From the IMG/VR virus record IMGVR_UViG_3300029543_000199: a DNA stretch of 38,001 bases; one strand, given 5' to 3'. This document shows positions 4,855 to 26,529 of this stretch, piece by piece; the first letter of the stretch is position 1, and each line of letters opens with the position of its first letter. This DNA is from a virus (taxonomy: Duplodnaviria; Heunggongvirae; Uroviricota; Caudoviricetes). Position numbers and translations under genes: made by a program. The notes below the pieces were generated by a model. That model was given only the letters and a program-made list of their open reading frames with translations, made no database searches and was not told the origin of the DNA.

Positions 4855-5127
4855 TTAAAGTAATGCGCTCAGTTCAATGATGCACTGTTTCATTTTTTCT
4901 GCTTCTGTCATTTCACGAATGATAAATCTTGTATGACCATCCTCGTTCCAGATATTTGTGCATGTCATATCTTTGTAGTCAACGCCACCAATGTTTACAT
5001 TGGATAAATTAGCGTCAGACAGAATCTCAATATTAACTGCATCGTCTGTGATATAGTTGTTGCCATTGATCGTGGCGTGAATCTCTGTTCCGTTTGCGAG
5101 GATAATATTGTAAATAGTATTTTCCAT
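4855..5127 (-). CDS. Small phage protein (fibre-associated, unknown)
   Basis: 90 aa; its GGAGG RBS and first 95 nt lie inside the RT ORF. Confidence 0.65.
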   Translation of the reverse strand: MENTIYNIILANGTEIHATINGNNYITDDAVNIEILSDANLSNVNIGGVDYKDMTCTNIWNEDGHTRFIIREMTEAEKMKQCIIELSALL

Positions 5128-6304
5128 CTATAAAACCTCCAAATAAGTCATAGTAAAGAAGATTTAAGTTATCACGTTGTATCTTACTCATAAGGTGGCA
5201 GTGACCACCCATCCAGGAGCGAAACATATTTTCTACTTCCTCCTGTGTACGTTCTCCATTCTTAACCTTGATGCTCAAAGCTTTGAGTTTACGTCTCATA
5301 TCAACAATTCTTTTCGGATTGATTTTCCTTATTACTCTACCTGTGTCAGTGAGAGAGTAGGAGATTTGAAGAAATCTATAGTAGTCTGATAGCTTTACTA
5401 TTCGTGTTTTCTTCCTGTTCAATGTCATTCCGAGTTCCGTTGCTTTAGCTGCAATCTTAGCCTCAAGCTCTACAAGATATTCTCTGCTCTGAGATATCAC
5501 ATAGCTATCATCCATATATCTGCCGTAGAATTTCTGACCTTCTACAATCTTGACAAAGTTATCTATTTGCGTTGGATAATATATTCCGATTATCTGCGAA
5601 CACTGATCTCCAATATTTACAGATTTACGCATATACTTTTCGCCTGTATGAGCGGACTTCGGAACATTCAATCTGTATTCTGCAGAATTGAAAGGTGTTT
5701 CCATGCAATGCTCATATTCTTCGTCGGTCATATATGAGACATCAATCTTGAAATTATCGAAGATTAAGTCCAATAACCATAGCGAAAACTCATCTGTAAC
5801 ATGCTTTGCAATTTCTTTATATGCAATATCATGTGGTATGTTATCGTAGAATTTACTGTAATCCATCAGTAAGATGTACCCGTCATTTCCGTGCTGGCGA
5901 TAGTATTTGTGTAGATGATATTCAAATCTTTCGCGACTGAAAGTAATTCCTTTTCCTTTGAGCGACGCTCCATTATCATAGACGAGATAAGAGAGTATGC
6001 TCGGAGCAAGAACATTATCGCAAAGAGAATGCCGGATTACTCTGTCTGACATTTGAAGACCAGTAATGGGTCTTGTCTTTCCTCTTTCGTTAATAATGAA
6101 TTCTGTCGAGGCTAATGAATGGTAGTTTCTGCTCTTTAAAGCAGCTTTACTTTTCACAATATGCGGAAGAAAATTCATTTCATATTTCTGAACCTGTGGT
6201 TTCCAGTCAGAATCTTTCTTAGCCGCTATATATGCGTGATAAAGTGAATTCAGATTATATACAACGTCACACTCATCTTCAAATTGTGTGTTTGTATTAG
6301 TCAT
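5033..6304 (-). CDS. DGR reverse transcriptase
   Basis: Motifs ERGKTRPI, DRVIRH, GASLKGKG, MDYSKFYDNIPH, IGDQCSQ (DGR-type GxxxSQ) and catalytic YGRYMDD; no maturase or endonuclease domain. Confidence 0.95.
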   Translation of the reverse strand: MTNTNTQFEDECDVVYNLNSLYHAYIAAKKDSDWKPQVQKYEMNFLPHIVKSKAALKSRNYHSLASTEFIINERGKTRPITGLQMSDRVIRHSLCDNVLAPSILSYLVYDNGASLKGKGITFSRERFEYHLHKYYRQHGNDGYILLMDYSKFYDNIPHDIAYKEIAKHVTDEFSLWLLDLIFDNFKIDVSYMTDEEYEHCMETPFNSAEYRLNVPKSAHTGEKYMRKSVNIGDQCSQIIGIYYPTQIDNFVKIVEGQKFYGRYMDDSYVISQSREYLVELEAKIAAKATELGMTLNRKKTRIVKLSDYYRFLQISYSLTDTGRVIRKINPKRIVDMRRKLKALSIKVKNGERTQEEVENMFRSWMGGHCHLMSKIQRDNLNLLYYDLFGGFIDGKYYLQYYPRKRNRDSRHDQWQQLYHRRCS

Positions 6305-6452
6305 TTCTTTCCAAAATTATTTGACGTTTGTAGCAATCAGTCGTAACGAATTGCATCGCCTTTGTCTTTTAGTGCATTCCTGCACACGGACAATTTCTCC
6401 TTTCTTCGTTTCTTGTATCTGCATATAGCATAGTTAAACAAGTGGAAGAAAT

Positions 6453-6565
6453 CGGACGAACACCATTAGAATTAGAAGCGTTGTTGTTGTTCGCATTACC
6501 GTTGTTGTTCACATTAGCGAAGTTAGTCGCACTCCTAACACCACGGAGCCAATAGTTGAAGCGAC
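6453..6565 (-). repeat. DGR template repeat (TR)
   Basis: 113-bp ungapped match to 7252-7364. Contains 13 AAC/AAT codons and 30 adenines on the sense strand; lies between avd and RT. Confidence 0.96.
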
Positions 6566-6606
6566 TAAACGGCACAAACATACAGAAATTGCCCGGATTA
6601 TTCTTC

Positions 6607-7158
6607 TTATGCTTTCACAGATTCTTTCTCTCTGTTTAAAATACTCTTACGAATTTTGTTGTCAGATTTTCTCCAACCTTTGATTAACGCCTGTTCTTGT
6701 ATAATCATATTTGTGATATTTTCATATTTTTCTATATTGACAGGCAGAGTGGTAATGATATACTGTAATTCTTGAATTAAGTTCTCGCAGTGACCAAGAG
6801 CTAAGTCCTGATGTATTCTGCGTTCATCACACTCACTAATGAATTGCGGACTAATTTCATTAGCTAGAAAAATTTCATGTACCATATCACGGGTAATTTG
6901 TATAATTGCTTTCTGCTCATCTGGTATAAACCATTCTACAAAAGCTTCATATCGCTCCTTGCGCTTAGCAATATTGCGATCATAACCGTCCTTTTGATTT
7001 TGACTCCATCCTGCGTATGCGTCTGGCTTAGGTTTTTCTTCATATTCCTTTAAACCAAACTGTCGCAAAGCAAGGTCTGTAATAACAGTTCTTACTTTAT
7101 ATGCATGATGCTCAACCTCGAATGGAGATGGCTTTCTATTTGCTTTCAGTACCGACAT
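6607..7158 (-). CDS. avd: DGR accessory variability determinant (Avd-like four-helix bundle)
   Basis: Located between target and TR; helical; begins MSVLKANRK and ends LIKGWRKSD. Start placed at ATG 7158 behind GGAGGG. Confidence 0.8.
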   Translation of the reverse strand: MSVLKANRKPSPFEVEHHAYKVRTVITDLALRQFGLKEYEEKPKPDAYAGWSQNQKDGYDRNIAKRKERYEAFVEWFIPDEQKAIIQITRDMVHEIFLANEISPQFISECDERRIHQDLALGHCENLIQELQYIITTLPVNIEKYENITNMIIQEQALIKGWRKSDNKIRKSILNREKESVKA

Positions 7159-7174
7159 CATTCCCTCCGTATTA

Positions 7175-7199
7175 CCCACCCACCTAAAGGTGGGATGGG
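7175..7199 (-). promoter_or_regulatory. GC-rich hairpin/cruciform downstream of VR (DGR target-recognition element)
   Basis: ccca-cccacc-taaa-ggtggg-(a)-tggg, 35-60 nt after the target stop codon. Confidence 0.7.
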
Positions 7200-7233
7200 A
7201 TTAAAGATATTGCTATGTATTTCTTGCTAACCT

Positions 7234-8166
7234 TTAATTAACGAAGAAAAACGGACGAACACCAATAGAATCAGAAGCGCTGCCGTAGTTCGCATAACCG
7301 CTGCCGTTCACACGAGCGAAGCCAGTCGCACCCCTAACACCACGGAGCCAATAGTTGAAGCGACGGTGAATATATTCAGGAGCGAGAGCGAACAGTGGGA
7401 ACTGAGAGTTGATACATCCAACTTCATATCCGCTATTAGCCCATACATTTGTTCCGTACACCATAACCTCAGACATCAGTTCAACTTTACAGTCATACCA
7501 AGCCCATCCAGAAGCCTGTCCGTTAGAGGTTGCGTTCGGAAGGATATCTCTGTAAGACATTACATGAGTAGAACCGAAGTCGTTCACAATCTTCTGAGTT
7601 GCCTGTGCAAGGTTGGTAGTTCTCATATCAGAATTTGCATATGCACCGGTTGTTGTATTTGCAGCAGAACCTTCCGTATACTGACCACTATCTGTATTGT
7701 GCATCTGTGCGTTATACAGAGCAGAGTCAGGAACGAGGCACATGCAGTTACCCATAGATGCGTTGTCTCCAATCTGTTTTCCAAGATTGAATCCAGCGAT
7801 TCGATATACAGTACCATTGATTGTAAGGTAATCACCTACATACAGGTCATCAAATGTACCTGCCTGAATAGCTTTAGACATCGCAGATGTGTAAGCTGTA
7901 CCTAAATTCTTACCTCTGAAAATAGAGTTGTGACCACCTGCATTGTTACGAGCAGCTCCTTTGTACAGTTCATTTACTGCATCCGGCAGAGACTTTGTTC
8001 CCTGATCCAGACCGAAAGTTTTACCTGTCAGCTTATTCAGTGTAGCTGTGGAAAGGTTGCCGAAAGTCACACCTTTAGTACCGTTCGCACCGTCAACTGG
8101 AAGTACATCAGAATCAGCGACAGCAGTAACAGCAGAAAGGTCTTTAATTCTTGTTGTATTTGCCAT
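7234..8166 (-). CDS. DGR target protein; probable receptor-binding/adhesin with C-terminal C-type-lectin-like variable domain
   Basis: The C-terminus YWLRG...GVRPFF is encoded by the VR. The gene lies directly downstream of the tail fibre gene. Confidence 0.9.
   Translation of the reverse strand: MANTTRIKDLSAVTAVADSDVLPVDGANGTKGVTFGNLSTATLNKLTGKTFGLDQGTKSLPDAVNELYKGAARNNAGGHNSIFRGKNLGTAYTSAMSKAIQAGTFDDLYVGDYLTINGTVYRIAGFNLGKQIGDNASMGNCMCLVPDSALYNAQMHNTDSGQYTEGSAANTTTGAYANSDMRTTNLAQATQKIVNDFGSTHVMSYRDILPNATSNGQASGWAWYDCKVELMSEVMVYGTNVWANSGYEVGCINSQFPLFALAPEYIHRRFNYWLRGVRGATGFARVNGSGYANYGSASDSIGVRPFFFVN
7252..7364 (-). repeat. DGR variable repeat (VR)
   Basis: Differs from TR at 15 positions, all TR adenines (11 A>G, 3 A>T, 1 A>C), giving 11 amino-acid changes. 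Confidence 0.96.
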
Positions 8167-17772: not shown

Positions 17773-20700
17773 CTACCATTGATATTTATTTTTTGATAAC
17801 TTGCTACCACCAGATAACTGGTCAACAGTCATAGAACGAATCATCTTTTCAAACTTTCCGTCCTTACGCATCTGATTCATAAAATCATTGTAGTCTTGTA
17901 CATGTTCTATCGGAATTGTTACCTGATAGGTGATGTCTCCGATATTTGTTTCTCTGCCTGATATTGGCGCACCAATTTTGGCAAGTTGTGATAACACATT
18001 CGCAGCACCATCGTCTCCTCCAAACAGTTCGCTCAAAGGATTGTTTCCGTCTGCGATACTCCTCATAGCATCTTTTAATGCAATAAAGTTTTGTGTATCT
18101 TTCGGGTTAAGAACCATTTCAGGTTCTGTAGGCGTACCATCAAGCCAAGCCATTCCGGTATAATCAGCCAGACCACCCTTCTTAAATGCACTGTAGTAAT
18201 ATTTAGAAAGATTGCTCTTTCCCGTACTTACCCAGTATCTATACAAATCTCCATTATTGGCGTGAGCATTGATGTAGCTCTGCACGGCAGCCGCGTTAGA
18301 TGCTCCGAATTTAGCGGTAAGACGTTTCTTTCTGTTTGGGTCATTTCCCCACCCAGATTTAGAACCGTAAATCCAGATAGCAGCAGCAACGCCACGTTTT
18401 ACATCCTCATTGAATTTCGGAGTATTGTTGGTTGGTTGCTTAGCAGGAGTATTTGCTTGTGTAGGTGGTTTTGCGGACGTATCCGTCTTCGTTGATGGAG
18501 TAGCAGAAGATATAGTTGAATCAGCCTTCTTATCACTTTCTTTTACCATAGCACCAATTTTGTATGCTATTTTTGTGATAACATCATTTACTGATGTCAT
18601 CTGTGTTAAGAAAGATTCTCCATATTTTGTAATGATGGAGCCTGCGCCACCCTCATTTGTCCAAATAGACTTCATTGCAGCGGTTAAATCGTAACCAACT
18701 TTATCACTCTGCGTTTGCAGTGTGGTACTGATATTGGCTGAATTCTGATTGATAGTGTTAATCATATCAGCCATTAAAGCATCGATGTTATCCAGGCGTT
18801 CATTTAGGATAGCTTCATACTCATCATACAGATTGTCGAGAAGCTTTTTCTGTTCACTGATATAGTGTTCATACTGAGTCTCCTCAAGATTATCCATAGC
18901 ATCAGCTAAGTCAACCTGAATTTTCTGTATGGTTGCTTTAGTCTCTTCTGAGTTGTCGCCGGAATAAGCAGCTAACTGTTTCTGAAGCTTAGAGATTTCT
19001 GATGTCTGTTCCTCAACCTTTTTCTGATAATCATACAGATCCTTGGCTGTATCCATAGCATCTGTATATCTATCAATCAAATCCTGTAATGCATCAAGCT
19101 CTTTTTCGATACCATCAGCAACAAGGTCTTTAATAGCCTGTTTCTCATCCTCTGCGGCAAGGATAGAATCACGTTGAGCCTCAAGTAAATCCTGACGATG
19201 CTCCAGAAGTTTCGTGTTGTTCGGGTCTTCTGCAATCTCGGCATTTAACTTCTTCAATTCCTCTGCATACTTATCAGCCTGAGCCATGTACACATTATAG
19301 TTCTGACCGTGAAGACCTAGCGTTGCCATTCCGGTATCAGTAAACTGTCCGTTATCGGTAAATAAGTTAGAGTTCTCCATTAAGTCGATCAGGAAGTCCG
19401 CCTCGTCAGTGATGTTACTGATTTGCTCCTGCAAGTAATCGAATCTATCCCACTTTGTCTCACGAATTGAGTTCTGGAATTTTACAAGAGCTGTTTCAGA
19501 TTCCTGGATTTTCTCCTTAACTCCGTTGATATCATTCTGCATGTCATACCATGCTTCGCTGCCTTCTTTGATTTCTCCAGAGTTGACAGCTTCCGACATA
19601 GACCGAACAAGTGAGTCAAGCTCTTTCTTCTGAATATCAATGTTTTGTTTCTCAACATTTTGCATTGCTTCGTAGAACTTAGTGCTTGCCATATATCCTC
19701 GTTCTTCAAGGTCATCTATGCCATTATCATACGTATTCGTGAGATGCTCTAAGAGACTGAGCTGGTTTTCAAAATCGTTTGAGAGATTATCGAATCTGTC
19801 TTTGTATAAGTTGGCGATTTCTTCGTGCAGATCCGCAACAGCGTCCTTCGCTTCAATAGCCTTCTCGTAAAAGTCCTGATAATCCTTAATCTTATCGGCG
19901 AGGTCTTCATCAGTAACAGTCGTGATTTCAATCGAACCGTCTCTGATTTTTCTAGCCCAAGATTCGTCAAGACCGAGAGAATTGGCTTTTGCCATATATC
20001 CCTCATACGCTCTGTTCTCTACATCAATCTTATTTGCAATAGCAGACATTTCAGAAACTAATGCACTATTACGTGTGCTAAGAGTCTTGAATGCACTATC
20101 AGCAGTTACTTTCAGTCTATCTATTGCTTCGGTCGCTCTATCGACAGCAATCGCAATAAGGTCAAATACTTCTTCAAATTCTTTTTCAGACGAAGAGGAG
20201 CTTGATTTAGATCCACTTGATTTCGATGACGAAGAACCTCTGGATGAACGAGATGAGCTTCCAGAACTTTTCTTCGATGAAGAAGATGGTTTTCTGCTTG
20301 TAGAAGATGAGCTTGGCTTATATGGTTTGTATCCGCCAGTAACCATCGCTGTACCGCTAACTAGAGCAGAAGCCCGTCCAGAAACATATCCGTTCTCAAG
20401 TAAGCTTTCGGTCTGCTTGTGATTGAATACGATTGCTCCTGCTGGTATATCTCTAAACTCCGCACCATTGTCTCCGACTGTATACCATCTGCCGGTTCGT
20501 GGGTCTACAACAATTTCGCGACCAAGTTCTCCAACAAGAGTGCTGCCGCCAGGTGCTGTTCCCCAGTCTCCGCCAGCTCTCGCAGTTCCGCCAGCATGAG
20601 CGGTACCGCTTACATTTGAACCAGTTTTTACATAGTTTACATACCGTGTAATCGTACTGAATGAGCTAGGGAGGTTTGCAGTATTAGCTATATAGTTTAC

Positions 20701-23700
20701 AGTTCGATTGATAGAAGAGAATGATTCGGGTAATAAGTCTGTCTTCGGGTCATAGATAACATCGCACTTCTTTGACTCAGGATTATACCCGTCTATTGCC
20801 GACGCATCGACATTTGCCTTCACATTTATAGTCTCCGCAGATAGTCCAGCGATAGATGTTTTGATGGAATCAACCGATGTTGAATCAATATTCAGCTTCG
20901 CTTTGATATCTGGAGAAATGCCTTCTATTTCAGAAGCCAGAGAATTTACTTTCGATTCAGCTTCAGATGTATCAGCACCGACTTTCTGTTTAATCTCAAG
21001 GTCGTTTGTTGCGTTCTGGAATTGCTGTAAAAGAGATATTGCGTTTCCAATTTCGCCTTCTACCTGAGATGTATCAACCCTCATTACATCAGGCTGTGAT
21101 AAAAGCTGCTTCTGAGTGAGGCAGTATTGAATAACAGCATTGGCATTATCAATACTTGACGCATCTACGTCAGGTCTGGCTTTTACGCCATCCATTTCTG
21201 CTATAGTTGCATCCAATGCATTTATCTGTTCTTCGGTCGTTGAAAGGTCAGAGACATCCATTTTGATTTTTAAATCGCTATTTCCGTCCATCTGTCTTAG
21301 AGATTCCGCAGCCTCATTAGCTTCTACAGCTAAATCGCCTATAGTCTTTACGGCTTCATCTCCCCAGTCGAAATTTGCACCTTTAAGCTGAAGCTCATCA
21401 AAGAATGCCTGAACAACACCTGATGATAAATTAAGACCTTCTGCAAAATCCTCCATCTTCTTGCCACCGAGGACTTTAAATCCATCGTCTTCACTGTATG
21501 ACATAAGACCTGCATCAACAGATTTCTGCAAGAACTTATCTACATCAAGTCCCTCTACAACTCCGTCATCATCAAATCTCAAATATTCTTTGAAATTTGC
21601 CATATATGATTCGATTGCACTAAGGTCTTCGCTATCTACAGAATCTGGAACGATGAAATCTACAGCTGCTTCAAATTTCTTTGAGCCAAAGTTTCCATAT
21701 ATATCTGAATTTGCGTCGTATGTGTCTCGAATTTGCTGTATAGCACTAACCGTATCATTTGCCATGTCGCCATAGTCTGATGCGCCTTGTGCGTTCAGCC
21801 AGTTCTGATATGCTCCGACAGCTTCCTGAATAGAAGCAGATAATAAATCATACTGAGCACAGTTATCTGCAATAGCACTATTTTCGGATAATAAGGCATC
21901 AATAGAAGCTTGAATACTTTCCGCAGTTTCTCCTTCTGCGAAGCTTGCGTCTTGCAACTGCTGACGATACTGTTCAATCTGTCTTGCATTCTCAAGGTAC
22001 TGAGCCTGTTCAAGCGCCTTGTTCGTGTTGTTTGTTGCAACCTGCTCTTCGGCTTTAGCCTTAGCAATCTCACGAACTTTCTCTGCATTTAACTGCATTG
22101 TACCATTGACATACTCAAGAGCACCTCTGTAATCTGCAAGTTCGTCTGAATTGAAATCTGCAAGAGATACAGACTTGCCGTTCTGCTGACTACTAAGAAC
22201 ACTCTGTACAGTTGTAAGACCATTAACAAGATTTTCAGCAGCAGTACGCATATCTGACATAGATACTGTTGTTTCTTCCATTCCTTCTACAGGCTCTCCA
22301 GAAACAACGCCGAGTTCAATAAGCATATTCGCGAGTGACTGCAGGCTCTCGGAAGATGTATCGCTGATTACACCTGCGTCAAGCGCAGCCTGTACCAATG
22401 CATTTATCTGTTCTTCGCCTTCCTGTACACCATCTGTTTCAAATGCATATATGAAATCTTTGTCATCCAGCTTTAAGTCTTTCAGTTCCTTCGCCGCATC
22501 TGCAATTTCTTTTGCTCCGTCTGACGTATCAATACCATTGACTGCATCCTTAAAATCATTCGCACTGATAGCAGCGGTGTTTAGCTGATCGCTAATTTCT
22601 GTGAATGAGTCAGCGTATCCGCTCATATCAGATTCCAGAAGTGATTGAACGGACTTATCTACAGCGTCAAAGTTTGTCTTTGCTTCAGCTATTTTGGATG
22701 AGTCTCCGCTCGCGAGAGCATCATTATATTCCTTTACCGCTTGGGAATAATCACGCATCCACTCAGCGGCTGTCTTAGAATCTCCGCTTTTGTCTTTATA
22801 TTCAGTTTTATCTCCGGCGATTTCAGCAGCTTTTGCCTGTTCATACACTTCCTGATATTTATCCAGAACTTTGTTTGCACTTTTTAGACCACTTTCTGCA
22901 TAACTGAATATATTGTCGAGCATCCAGTTCCCGCCAAGTTCATCTGATGCATTTCTGACATCTGTCATGAAATCATTCAGAGCGGCTTCTGCCTGTGTTG
23001 CGTCTCCTTTAAAGTAGAGCTGCAGCGTACCGTCTAATCCCTGCTGTGTTGTTATTAAATCTCCATATTTTTTCTGAGAGTTCTTAATCGCCTTTTTGAG
23101 AGCCTCAGACGCTTCGTCTCCCTCTGCATCATAAAACTGTCCAAGGTAATAGGTTCTGTTTTTCTCCATTTCCTTGGTTGCTTTGTTGATACCTTTTTGA
23201 TTCTCATTCAGATACTTATTTGCATCTGACTGGCTTAACTGATCCATCAGACCAATCTGCTCACGCAGTGATCCATTTACGAGGTCAATTCCGTCAGCCT
23301 GACTTCCATATGAATCTGTTAATGACTCCTGAATTGATAGAAGCTCTGATTTTGCCTGATATGCTTCTGATTCCGTAAGCGTACCGGATGCTAATTGATT
23401 CCTTAATTCTACAACTCTATTTTTATAATCTTCGATGGAACTGTTTGATTCCTTCCACGCATTACCAGCTTCTTGAGCAGCCTGAACCTGTTTTTGCATG
23501 TAGTTATCATATATTTTCCATCCAATGAATGCTGCGCCTACAAGTGCGATAATTCCTACAAGAGGTGCTAACGCACCGAATAAAGCAGTTGCTCCTGCGG
23601 CGACCGCACCGAATACTCCGGCTCCGCCTGCGAGTGCAGTTGACATAGCTTCAACCGCAATAGTTACTTGCGGAAACGCAGTTCCTAATGCTTGTATGAT

Positions 23701-23742
23701 GCTTGTAAGTGTTTTTGCTCCTTCGATACCTTTTATAGCAGA
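17773..23742 (-). CDS. Tape measure protein, exon 2 (1989 codons)
   Basis: The frame is open 32 codons upstream of ATG 23646 (SAIKGIEGAKTLTSIIQALG...) to the predicted 3' splice site. There is no RBS at 23646. Long helical Ala/Glu/Lys/Leu-rich sequence. Confidence 0.88.
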   Translation of the reverse strand, partial: SAIKGIEGAKTLTSIIQALGTAFPQVTIAVEAMSTALAGGAGVFGAVAAGATALFGALAPLVGIIALVGAAFIGWKIYDNYMQKQVQAAQEAGNAWKESNSSIEDYKNRVVELRNQLASGTLTESEAYQAKSELLSIQESLTDSYGSQADGIDLVNGSLREQIGLMDQLSQSDANKYLNENQKGINKATKEMEKNRTYYLGQFYDAEGDEASEALKKAIKNSQKKYGDLITTQQGLDGTLQLYFKGDATQAEAALNDFMTDVRNASDELGGNWMLDNIFSYAESGLKSANKVLDKYQEVYEQAKAAEIAGDKTEYKDKSGDSKTAAEWMRDYSQAVKEYNDALASGDSSKIAEAKTNFDAVDKSVQSLLESDMSGYADSFTEISDQLNTAAISANDFKDAVNGIDTSDGAKEIADAAKELKDLKLDDKDFIYAFETDGVQEGEEQINALVQAALDAGVISDTSSESLQSLANMLIELGVVSGEPVEGMEETTVSMSDMRTAAENLVNGLTTVQSVLSSQQNGKSVSLADFNSDELADYRGALEYVNGTMQLNAEKVREIAKAKAEEQVATNNTNKALEQAQYLENARQIEQYRQQLQDASFAEGETAESIQASIDALLSENSAIADNCAQYDLLSASIQEAVGAYQNWLNAQGASDYGDMANDTVSAIQQIRDTYDANSDIYGNFGSKKFEAAVDFIVPDSVDSEDLSAIESYMANFKEYLRFDDDGVVEGLDVDKFLQKSVDAGLMSYSEDDGFKVLGGKKMEDFAEGLNLSSGVVQAFFDELQLKGANFDWGDEAVKTIGDLAVEANEAAESLRQMDGNSDLKIKMDVSDLSTTEEQINALDATIAEMDGVKARPDVDASSIDNANAVIQYCLTQKQLLSQPDVMRVDTSQVEGEIGNAISLLQQFQNATNDLEIKQKVGADTSEAESKVNSLASEIEGISPDIKAKLNIDSTSVDSIKTSIAGLSAETINVKANVDASAIDGYNPESKKCDVIYDPKTDLLPESFSSINRTVNYIANTANLPSSFSTITRYVNYVKTGSNVSGTAHAGGTARAGGDWGTAPGGSTLVGELGREIVVDPRTGRWYTVGDNGAEFRDIPAGAIVFNHKQTESLLENGYVSGRASALVSGTAMVTGGYKPYKPSSSSTSRKPSSSSKKSSGSSSRSSRGSSSSKSSGSKSSSSSSEKEFEEVFDLIAIAVDRATEAIDRLKVTADSAFKTLSTRNSALVSEMSAIANKIDVENRAYEGYMAKANSLGLDESWARKIRDGSIEITTVTDEDLADKIKDYQDFYEKAIEAKDAVADLHEEIANLYKDRFDNLSNDFENQLSLLEHLTNTYDNGIDDLEERGYMASTKFYEAMQNVEKQNIDIQKKELDSLVRSMSEAVNSGEIKEGSEAWYDMQNDINGVKEKIQESETALVKFQNSIRETKWDRFDYLQEQISNITDEADFLIDLMENSNLFTDNGQFTDTGMATLGLHGQNYNVYMAQADKYAEELKKLNAEIAEDPNNTKLLEHRQDLLEAQRDSILAAEDEKQAIKDLVADGIEKELDALQDLIDRYTDAMDTAKDLYDYQKKVEEQTSEISKLQKQLAAYSGDNSEETKATIQKIQVDLADAMDNLEETQYEHYISEQKKLLDNLYDEYEAILNERLDNIDALMADMINTINQNSANISTTLQTQSDKVGYDLTAAMKSIWTNEGGAGSIITKYGESFLTQMTSVNDVITKIAYKIGAMVKESDKKADSTISSATPSTKTDTSAKPPTQANTPAKQPTNNTPKFNEDVKRGVAAAIWIYGSKSGWGNDPNRKKRLTAKFGASNAAAVQSYINAHANNGDLYRYWVSTGKSNLSKYYYSAFKKGGLADYTGMAWLDGTPTEPEMVLNPKDTQNFIALKDAMRSIADGNNPLSELFGGDDGAANVLSQLAKIGAPISGRETNIGDITYQVTIPIEHVQDYNDFMNQMRKDGKFEKMIRSMTVDQLSGGSKLSKNKYQW

Positions 23743-23745
23743 CTC

Positions 23746-23774
23746 TTTTCAAAGGCAATATCGTGTGGTATGAT
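23746..23774 (+). promoter_or_regulatory. SigmaA-type promoter of the intron-borne antisense gene
   Basis: TTTTCA (23746-23751), 17-bp spacer, extended -10 TGgTATGAT (23766-23774), then an AAAGGAG RBS at 23781-23787. Confidence 0.65.
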
Positions 23775-23796
23775 AGGTGAAAAGGAGAATAATCAT

Positions 23797-24306
23797 ATGT
23801 CACTTATTACATGTCCGGAATGCGGTGCTCGCATATCCGATAAAGCATCATGCTGTGTACGGTGTGGATACCCATTACAAGATGTGGATAAAACACCAGA
23901 TTTATATTATGTAAAGCGCATTGAAGATAAATGGGTGCTAGGCAAAGCAAGATCAATGCTTGCACAAACATACATTACAAATAAAAATTCATCCGAATAT
24001 TCAGATTATTCGATAATAGCATCTGGTATTACAAAAGATAGAGCCGATATACTGCTTGACTTCATTATTAAAAATAGAGGAGAAGCAGAAGTAGTACCGG
24101 ATGAAAATAGTAAATCTGTCAATCAGAAGATGATGGATTATATTGACATTAACTTCAATAAGAATGCGCCTGTAATGTGTCCGCGTTGCAAATCCACGCA
24201 GATCGTAACTGGTCAAAGAGGTTTCAGTCTAATAACAGGATTTATTGGAAGCAATAAGACTGTAAACCGTTGTTCCAAATGCGGTTACACATGGCAACCA
24301 AAGTAA
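23797..24306 (+). CDS. Zinc-ribbon protein (169 aa) encoded antisense inside the intron
   Basis: Four CxxC motifs (CPEC, CVRC, CPRC, CSKC) and a C-terminal GFSLITGFIGS segment. ATG 23797 has an RBS. It is the only well-supported plus-strand gene. Confidence 0.85.
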   Translation: MSLITCPECGARISDKASCCVRCGYPLQDVDKTPDLYYVKRIEDKWVLGKARSMLAQTYITNKNSSEYSDYSIIASGITKDRADILLDFIIKNRGEAEVVPDENSKSVNQKMMDYIDINFNKNAPVMCPRCKSTQIVTGQRGFSLITGFIGSNKTVNRCSKCGYTWQPK

Positions 24307-24738
24307 TATCTTCTTATCGACGCAGATATTGTGCGTACCACATTTAAAGTAGGAGATAAGTTCCCACTACACGAGGACTATACATTAAAAGTCGCTACAC
24401 TAGGCTGTAGCGGCTCAAAGGGTGGGTAGTCTCTGAAGATGAAGCTGTGAGTCTTCGTCCGGCTGATGTTATCCTATCCGTAGAAAATACTTCTACATGG
24501 CACTTAGGCTTACTATCACCATATACCATCCAATCATTTGTTTCTGCCTTTCGCAACATTCACGCTTATTGTTTCCAATTACGTTGTAGTATGATTGGTT
24601 TAACCAGTTTCCCAGCAATTACCCCTTCGTGTGATTTATTTTAAAACGCTCACCCATAGTCTTGGCTCATACCTCCATAACGGTACGTCCTTAACCATGC
24701 CGACCTCTGCCATAAAAGCAACCCATGATTTTGGGTTA

Positions 24739-26529
24739 AGCCACGTTCTTGATGACCTTGGCAAGTCCCAATCCTGCAAGAATTGTTCCTAATGATCCAA
24801 CGGTCTCAACGATTTTATCAATCGCTTCTACGATACCTTTAAGACCTTCGACGGCTCCTTTTGTAAAGTTTGAACTGATAAAATCAGAAGAAAGCTCCTG
24901 AAAGGCTGCTTTCAGTTCTCCGACCTTAGCCTTTGTGGTATCCATATATATATTGTTTGCTTCGGTAGCAATACCAGCAGAATCCATAGCACTTGAGTAT
25001 GCTCCGATAGCGTCTTTGATATTCGTGATTGTAGACATAATACCTGATGTATTACGAGTACCACCAAGAATCTCTGCGACACGAGATTGAGATACATCTT
25101 CCATGTTATCCCAAACCTCAGCCAACTGTACAAATATGTCGTACATGTCTTTATATGTGTTTTCATCTTTCATGATGTCAACGCCAGATAAAGCCTTGAT
25201 TTCTTCCCTGTACTTAGACAGACCCTGAGCTAATCCGTCTGTTTCTTCGCCCATTTCTTCAAGCTCTGTTGTAGCTCCTCGGATACGAGCACTGACTGTC
25301 TTCCACATTGTACCAGTGGTTTCTGCATTCTGAAGAGAAGCATTGGTAGCAGCAAAAAGAGCAGCACTCTTTTCAAAATCAGTTCCAGAAGCGTGGAGCG
25401 CAGCACCACCTCTCTGGAATGCAGCCATCAATTCTTCCGCTGAAATTGCGTATTCCTGACCGACCTTAACAAGTACATCTGATACATGCTCCGCATCATT
25501 AGCATCTAACTCGTATCCCTTTATAATAGAAGTAATACCAGTTGTTGCTGTGTCTACATCAGTATTACCAACGTTCGCCATGATATTTGCATACTTAGCA
25601 AGGTTGGAAGAATCACTCATGTTGTAACCAAGACGAGCAAAAGTTTCAATAGAAGATGCTACATCAGTTACGCTCTGTCCAAGCTCTTTTGCAAGTGCAA
25701 TGGATTTCGTAAGGAATGCTTCCATCTGAGAATCAGAGGCTCCCGTTACAATCTTAATCTGAGCCATAGCACTTTCAACTTCAACCGCAGCAGATACCAT
25801 CTGCTTTGCAGTTCTTACAGCAGTCATGATTACCTGTGTGATAGATAACCAAGATGCGAATTTGGTTGCTAAACCACCGAATCGATCTCCAAGTGTTTGG
25901 GTATTTTCACCAGCAGCTCTGATTGCAGCAGAAGACTCTGTAACAGTTGATTTGATACTACGGAATGAGTTCTCGAACTGTTCAGCAGATACAGTTCCGT
26001 TCATCAATCCAGACTTCAATGTTTCAAGCGCAGTAATCTGACCCTTTAATGCAGAATAATTATCACTGGATTTACCGCTTCTTGCGGCAGTCCATTTCTG
26101 TGTGTTGGCAGTAACCTGTCCAAGTAATGTGTTGACTTTATTTAAGGCATCGGTGTGCTTCTTTGTACCGGCTGCAAAAGTATCCTCACTTGCTTTTGCC
26201 TGTTTTGTCGCATCGGCGGCTTTCTTTGTAGCACTGGCATTTTCATTTTTTGCCTGCGTATTAGCTTTAATAGCAGCAGTGTCTTTTACCCAGATACCAG
26301 AGTTAGTCTTGGTATAGCCACCCATTGACTTCGCCGTATTCGCAGTTGCCGCAGCCTTAGTCATTGATTCAATCTGTTTCTTCATAGAAGACAGGGATGA
26401 ATCATCAAATTTAAGTTTTATTTTCGGTGGATTGGCGTTGACCTGAGAAACCAGACTGGTAATTCCTGCCTGAAATTCAGCATAACTCAACGAAGTATCC
26501 ACGCCGACTGTCAGTAAAATGTCAGCCAT
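24739..26529 (-). CDS. Tape measure protein, exon 1 (597 codons, TP901-family core)
   Basis: TP901-like core (VESAMAQIKIVTG, FARLGY, DVLVKVGQEYAIS, SARIRG); ends at the predicted 5' splice site GCT|TAA. Confidence 0.9.

Follow-up and report, generated by a model that had tools for sequence, protein, structure and literature searches.

The window, meaning the whole 38,001-nt stretch of phage DNA analyzed here, carries on its minus strand a phage structural module running from portal to endolysin. Elsewhere it contains a diversity-generating retroelement (5033-8166; reverse transcriptase 5033-6304), whose 117-nt repeat pair (6449-6565 and 7248-7364) shows 86% identity, the second copy lying at the 3' end of a 310-aa open reading frame. 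Within the structural module, two open reading frames, 26529-24736 and 23646-17773, match consecutive parts of phrog_4211 (positions 396-939 and 1005-2603, respectively), and between them a group I-type core and a plus-strand open reading frame of 169 aa are found. The insert is a group I intron of the self-splicing type that splits the phage tape-measure gene, with splicing predicted from the sequence. The split gene and its insert are organized as follows:

24739..26529, minus strand: tape-measure gene exon 1 (ends ...KNVA; PF10145; phrog_4211 positions 396-939)
23743..24738, minus strand: group I intron of 996 nt (stop codon at its start, terminal G at 23743)
24702..24718, minus strand: internal guide sequence (P10 arm 24718-24706, P1 arm 24705-24702)
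23797..24306, plus strand: antisense cargo gene of 169 aa (a CxxC ribbon at each end; middle domain often L7/L12-like in relatives)
17773..23742, minus strand: tape-measure gene exon 2 (starts SAIK...; first 13 nt form P10; phrog_4211 positions 1005-2603)

Intron data set and alignments

Pattern and protein scans yielded 91 loci scoring above 200 bits on the core profile, many of them representing the same contig repeatedly. Four loci had no parsed 3' end and were dropped; the remaining 87 were reduced to 25 distinct end types, which were assigned manually to 15 lineages. Alignment A2, which covers the 3' half, comprises 13 of the 15 lineages, without L186 and L212, which carry long inserts. 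Alignment A3 (core) likewise comprises 13 lineages, leaving out L190, which is missing its 5' part, and L043, whose core barely differs from that of L034. Loose R/S patterns retrieved generic group I introns only, none of which scored as a member of the window's intron family. Since the lineages are related to each other, the permutation counts given below are not equivalent to probabilities.

In L190, L194 and L206, host-like chromosomal genes replace the intron 5' part and the upstream tail genes, upstream of the P4 motif, and the intron 3' half, the promoter and a broken cargo gene are kept. These loci likely represent a prophage remnant broken inside the intron.

Intron boundaries and the host gene

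The 5' splice site falls after U24739. All 13 aligned lineages have the U.G splice-site pair, U24739.G24705, next to which the P1 pairs covary. All 25 parsed end types finish with a terminal G, which is part of the parsing rule. P10, formed between the start of exon 2 and the guide sequence, measures 5-13 bp in 14 of 14 lineages whose 5' end is intact; in the window it spans 13 bp, with a pair probability of 0.87-1.0 in a fold of the whole intron. An initial candidate for P1, with GCGUUUU near 24650, and terminal G candidates at 23756, 23750, 23739 and 23729 were dropped on the basis of the invariant junction motif and P10.

Joining the two exons gives a frame of 2586 aa with 0 internal stops. 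The intronless proteins P0004, P0005 and P0022 align without gaps over the splice junction, and three others (P0001-P0003) are 4 residues shorter there. In two close relatives, L006 and L007, the tape-measure frame is uninterrupted and the insert is absent. The phages are probably temperate, as an integrase was detected in 5 of 5 relatives tested, two of which are classed as proviruses.

RNA contigs from eight of 18 listed runs contained no splice joint and no ends, and 0 contigs spanned both junctions. In one study, the contigs of three runs map for the most part to the ribozyme core (24390-24732), as those of a stable excised intron fragment might; in a second study, three runs yielded short, dispersed pieces. 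Neither set is taken as evidence.

Ribozyme core and class

The core and its helices were assigned as follows:

24375..24627, minus strand: ribozyme core (P3, P4, P6, P7 and P8, with a large P5 extension)
24627-24623/24422-24418, minus strand: P3
24616-24612/24466-24462, minus strand: P4
24460-24453/24444-24437, minus strand: P6
24433-24427/24380-24375, minus strand: P7
24416-24407/24398-24389, minus strand: P8

P3, P4, P6, P7 and P8, together with a G-C guanosine-binding pair in P7, mark this core as group I. P3, P4 and P7 are fully paired, with double changes in P3 and P7, and P6 and P8 covary. Taken together, P1, P3, P4, P7, P9 and the P9-loop helix described below show pairing in 403 of 403 cells and double changes in 30 of them, a level attained in 0 of 500 shuffles. 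P7.1/P7.2, a mark of subgroup IA, is absent, the gap between P7 (24427) and P3 (24422) being only 4 nt. Rfam group I models gave no match at the gathering score or at E ≤ 5, and the P4-P5 region has blastn matches to 203 annotated phage records.

A two-pair P9.0 is common in group I introns but not obligatory. Here, the canonical form beside the terminal G is restricted to 3 of the 15 lineages, including the window; because it is mostly absent, P10 and the long-range helix H described below probably stand in for it. On the intron strand, terminator-like scores were obtained at 24719-24738 (P1-loop hairpin) and at 24393-24412 (P8).

The antisense cargo gene

All family cargo genes read belong to one zinc-ribbon family with variable middles, and 10 aligned proteins are 35-81% identical to that of the window. 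An L7/L12 C-terminal domain was detected in 6 of 10 cargo proteins and homing endonuclease Pfam families (GIY-YIG, HNH, LAGLIDADG) in 0 of 10. The cargo of L391 and L487 is without the N-terminal ribbon. PADLOC returned weak matches only (in 2 and 1 of the 10 proteins), and a protein atlas gave leads below 0.9 only. Of the components that define IStrons, that is an IS200/IS605 or IS607 transposase, a TnpB cargo and an IA2 core, the search recovered weak zinc-ribbon cross-matches only.

The first-pass annotation had proposed an exchangeable cargo slot. Exchange is apparent, but only within one cargo family: L034 and L043 have a common core with a different cargo allele and tail, and L186 and L212 contain additional DNA, with neither an empty slot nor an unrelated cargo among the family loci examined. 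It had also been suggested that antisense transcription toward the core could repress premature splicing. A plus-strand terminator between cargo and core was found neither in the window nor in 11 of the 15 lineages. A clear terminator-like hairpin with a U-run is present there in L391 and L487, and two other lineages have weak ones. With terminators absent in most lineages and present in some, read-through into the core is possible but not conserved; in a lysogen, the late transcript to be repressed would be expected to be scarce. The L391/L487 hairpin sits between the pseudoknot described below and the cargo stop and could work on both strands, and the late transcript may therefore need antitermination.

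A promoter-like site at a fixed position in the intron tail

Two elements upstream of the cargo gene were identified in the tail of the intron and beside it:

23746..23774, plus strand: sigma-70-type promoter-like site, TTTTCA-17-TGnTATGAT, facing the cargo (predicted start near 23781)
23782-23787, plus strand: purine-rich ribosome-binding site

The promoter-like site consists of TTTTCA (23746-23751), a 17-nt spacer, an extended TG (23766-23767) and TATGAT (23769-23774), exactly where the first-pass annotation had placed it, and its position is kept across 14 of the 15 lineages. In the window sequence alone, 1.5 kb contains 5 promoter-like sites compared with 4.5 ± 2.1 in shuffles, which is chance level; the site stands above chance because its position is fixed in relatives. 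In 13 of 15 lineages, a blind search for the best sigma-70 site in the last 55 nt of the intron placed the -35 element 2-5 nt away from the terminal G. At fixed geometry, a promoter score of at least 9 was reached in 14 of 15 lineages compared with 1.1% of 6189 control positions, in a test that is partly circular, the 2-5 nt window having been picked after the blind search result. In the 15th lineage, a promoter-like site lies 17 nt further into the intron.

A purine-rich ribosome-binding site followed by the cargo start is present in 15 of 15 lineages, as judged by eye, and in 14 of them is preceded at a conserved position by elements with sigma-70 -35/-10 spacing. The last ~32 nt of the intron thus contain, as had been claimed, an antisense promoter-like site, which is conserved in position, and this tail DNA is likely the promoter of the backward-facing cargo gene, at which transcription is presumed to start. 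A sense-strand promoter candidate at the 5' strand of helix H was dropped by eye, its -10 T not being conserved.

Predicted long-range pairing of the intron tail and the 3' domain

On the intron strand, the tail and the region after P7 contain the following elements:

24336..24342, minus strand: helix H 5' strand, UGUGGUA, just before the ACGCA/UGCGU hairpin
23764..23770, minus strand: helix H 3' strand, UACCACA, complement of the promoter's extended -10 region
24305..24336, minus strand: ACGCA/UGCGU hairpin with loop CAAUAUC (24331-24325) and its local partner, a predicted H-type pseudoknot
24349..24367, minus strand: P9 hairpin, whose loop CUUAUC (24360-24355) is predicted to pair with GAUAAG (24318-24313)
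24369..24374, minus strand: UCGUGU at the P9.0 position after P7, earlier proposed to pair with ACACGA; no conserved partner found
23756..23762, minus strand: GAUAUUG, distal complement of the hairpin loop, lineage-restricted

The idea that the tail pairs back to the core and loops out the cargo is retained in part. A conserved long-range helix (24342-24336/23770-23764) is predicted to surround the cargo, although its base pairs differ from those first proposed. Every long-range count made on alignment A2 is affected by a register shift at the 3' ends of L037 and L391. On this alignment, helix H is paired in 85.6% of 104 cells, 10 of them with both sides changed, compared with 26-54% for slid registers; 0 of 500 shuffles scored as high. 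Counted over the 15 lineages, with three anchors reset by hand and that of L037 chosen by its pairing, H comprises 6 or more contiguous pairs in each of them (109 of 120 positions), a result as high in 3 of 20000 partner permutations. The core of the helix, UGGUA/UACCA, is nearly invariant and its 3' strand is also constrained by the promoter, so that few independent changes underlie the covariation of H. Helix H persists in L037 and L487 despite loss of the TG extension, suggesting selection on the pairing apart from the promoter consensus.

The loop CAAUAUC of the ACGCA/UGCGU hairpin has a local complement, GAUAUU (24310-24305), 15 nt downstream of the loop. This local helix is paired in 84.7% of 59 cells and shows double changes in 10, a level matched in 0 of 500 shuffles and 0 of 20000 permutations. 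The P9-loop helix CUUAUC/GAUAAG, taken from a consensus fold, forms all 6 pairs in each of the 15 lineages (90 of 90; 8 of 20000 permutations), with four covarying pairs, and GAUAAG sits in the pseudoknot linker between the hairpin and GAUAUU. The 3' domain is accordingly drawn as a predicted double pseudoknot closed by H.

Interpretation and alternative readings

Intron anatomy, junction frame and the fixed promoter-like position are evident from the data, as is the covariation of helix H, P10 and the two pseudoknot helices. One DNA stretch likely has a double use, as antisense promoter and as an intron RNA helix with corrected partners. We assign a probability of about 0.68 to the whole explanation, in which the tail would be a likely promoter as DNA and, as intron RNA, the helix-H strand closing the cargo loop. 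In a lysogen, host polymerase would transcribe the cargo from the tail promoter, as a moron. During the lytic cycle, the core and the double-pseudoknot 3' domain of the late transcript would fold ahead of synthesis of the ~540-nt cargo. Helix H would then return the tail to a point ~20 nt short of the terminal G, and the 3' splice site would be fixed by the long P10.

The two pairings originally assigned to the tail overlap by 2 nt and underlie two alternative readings. ACACGA (23766-23761, 17 nt before the terminal G at 23743) and UCGUGU (24374-24369, minus strand, directly after P7) are present and exactly complementary, as the first-pass annotation had noted. As a cargo-closing helix, this pairing is not supported, with 6 of 6 pairs in only 2 of 15 lineages, the window and L201, where it survives a G.U change. 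It could nevertheless be a genuine extended P9.0 in this lineage, with private partners elsewhere and at least UCG/CGA stacking on H: its fold probability is ~0.8 in the isolated 3' domain, L043 has a 7-8-bp match of its own, and permutations did as well in 19 of 20000 cases when the hexamer after P7 was scored against the entire terminal segment and in 291 of 20000 for the fixed register by energy. However, on A2 it is paired in 60.3% of 78 cells from 13 lineages, as high in 59 of 500 shuffles, and sliding it by two columns gives an identical covariation score; it is broken in the close relative L003; its probability drops to 0.05 when P7 is added and to 0.0 when the whole intron is folded; and without the H strand the post-P7 pairing signal is gone (4745 of 20000). 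It also competes with H over three bases (ACA of ACACGA), so that both cannot fully form, and we consider an extended P9.0 quite improbable. The second pairing, between GAUAUUG (23762-23756) and the loop CAAUAUC (24331-24325), is likewise exact in the window and turned out weak across the family: in 4 of 15 lineages (window, L005, L034 and L037, with different loop sequences) the distal complement outscores shuffled tails (p < 0.05), whereas the local partner covaries better. A two-state docking would give it a role, the loop pairing locally and then swapping to distal GAUAUUG once the intron 3' end is made, a completion signal that would gate splicing. The distal element lies one base beyond helix H, and its pairing is the stronger one in the window (-7.3 vs -5.7 kcal/mol) and in L005. 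Yet the local pairing is stronger in 11 of 15 lineages, and in 11 of 15 the distal complement is no better than shuffled tails. On A2 the distal pairing reaches 56.3% of 71 cells (a level equalled in 23 of 500 shuffles, and its double changes in 85 of 500), its permutation counts are 952 and 2138 of 20000, its offset varies among lineages, and the L037 match draws on stem bases. Such a swap is therefore unlikely.

A third alternative is that the tail is only a promoter, that the upstream UGUGGUA is a short inverted repeat retained on other grounds, for example as a DNA-level cassette boundary, and that P10 alone finds the 3' splice site. This would fit the folding results, in which H is unfavoured without constraints (probability 0.0 in all three constructs, and 0.7 only in the 3'-domain construct with P9 and the hairpin forced), as given by a program that cannot form the pseudoknots flanking H. 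It would also fit the more remote introns that carry this cargo family, in which no obvious H was seen by eye, and the single G.U among the first six pairs of H in 15 lineages, because of which wobble does not fix the strand of H. What makes the promoter-only reading very unlikely is that H shows double changes at several positions, that the repeat adjoins a pseudoknot whose wobble pairs suit the intron strand only, that the intron is without a recombinase or transposase gene, and that 6-10 bp is short for a terminal repeat. The double-use explanation has a point against it in L190, which still has the helices without the intron 5' part. A stronger form, in which the extended -10 would be an obligatory helix of a double-pseudoknot cargo dock, so that promoter loss would be splicing loss, and a loop hand-over would delay the ribozyme until the cargo is transcribed, appears doubtful to about the same degree as the two-state docking.

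Comparison with known systems

Work of Michel et al. from 1992 reportedly found the core of the T4 sunY (nrdD) intron to be activated by its remote 3' splice junction. The window intron, as predicted, resembles sunY in that the open reading frame is looped from the 3' domain and the terminal nucleotides pair long-range with the ribozyme periphery. The long-range partner in sunY is reportedly a P7-extension loop, which is absent in the window intron. The sunY intron encodes its endonuclease on the sense strand (PMC2988022), in contrast to the antisense cargo of the window, and T4 introns contain promoters, according to the same source.

Group I introns TMP-IVS1-3 interrupt tape-measure genes of Bacillus cereus group prophages (PMC2504315) and share with the window intron the tape-measure host gene, a prophage setting, in-frame insertion, a stop codon at the start and P1/P10. 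They are described there as IA1/IA2 introns with a homing endonuclease or nothing, whereas in the window intron P7.1/P7.2 is missing, P5 bears a large extension, and the cargo is an antisense gene, not an endonuclease, preceded by a promoter-like site of its own. IStrons (PMC4227781) carry their cargo at the ribozyme 3' end, closed by an inverted-repeat stem, and the window intron is similar in its fixed cargo position and flanking inverted-repeat stem. An IStron is, however, a mobile IA2 intron with transposon cargo, unlike the window intron with no transposase and one fixed gene site. I-DirII of Didymium is an antisense open reading frame in a group I intron with its own promoter (PMC3073962), as predicted for the window cargo; it differs in lying in eukaryotic rDNA, in using a polymerase II promoter and in encoding a homing endonuclease, and the relevant passage does not present its promoter as a helix strand.

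A literature search covering few subscription journals returned nothing on the window's intron family and no promoter element acting as a covarying intron helix. Tape-measure introns, stem-closed 3' cargo, intron promoters and remote 3' junction pairing are already known singly, so the surprise is moderate. If true, the double use would mean a promoter locked by the RNA structure of the opposite strand, and would explain how a low-cost, lysogeny-expressed passenger gene is kept inside an essential late gene of a temperate phage. The double-pseudoknot 3' domain, missed by Rfam, would then be a new peripheral architecture of group I ribozymes.

Related introns and other inserts

L474, L478, L480, L483 and L513 belong to a sister subfamily of introns in which the 3' strand of P7 is a variant one and the same cargo family lies antisense; no helix H was obvious in these five by eye. 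In L469, L477, L510, L517, L529 and L533, cargo relatives lie antisense just before an apparent tape-measure exon with no core nearby, and the complement of the -35 element appears by eye to span the splice junction itself. Other inserts at approximately the same tape-measure site are found in L009-L012, L014-L018, L020-L021, L356, L404 and L405, where they consist of several kb of unrelated genes on both strands, including DUF262-like, TnpB-like and tandem lipoprotein-like genes (labels assigned by eye).
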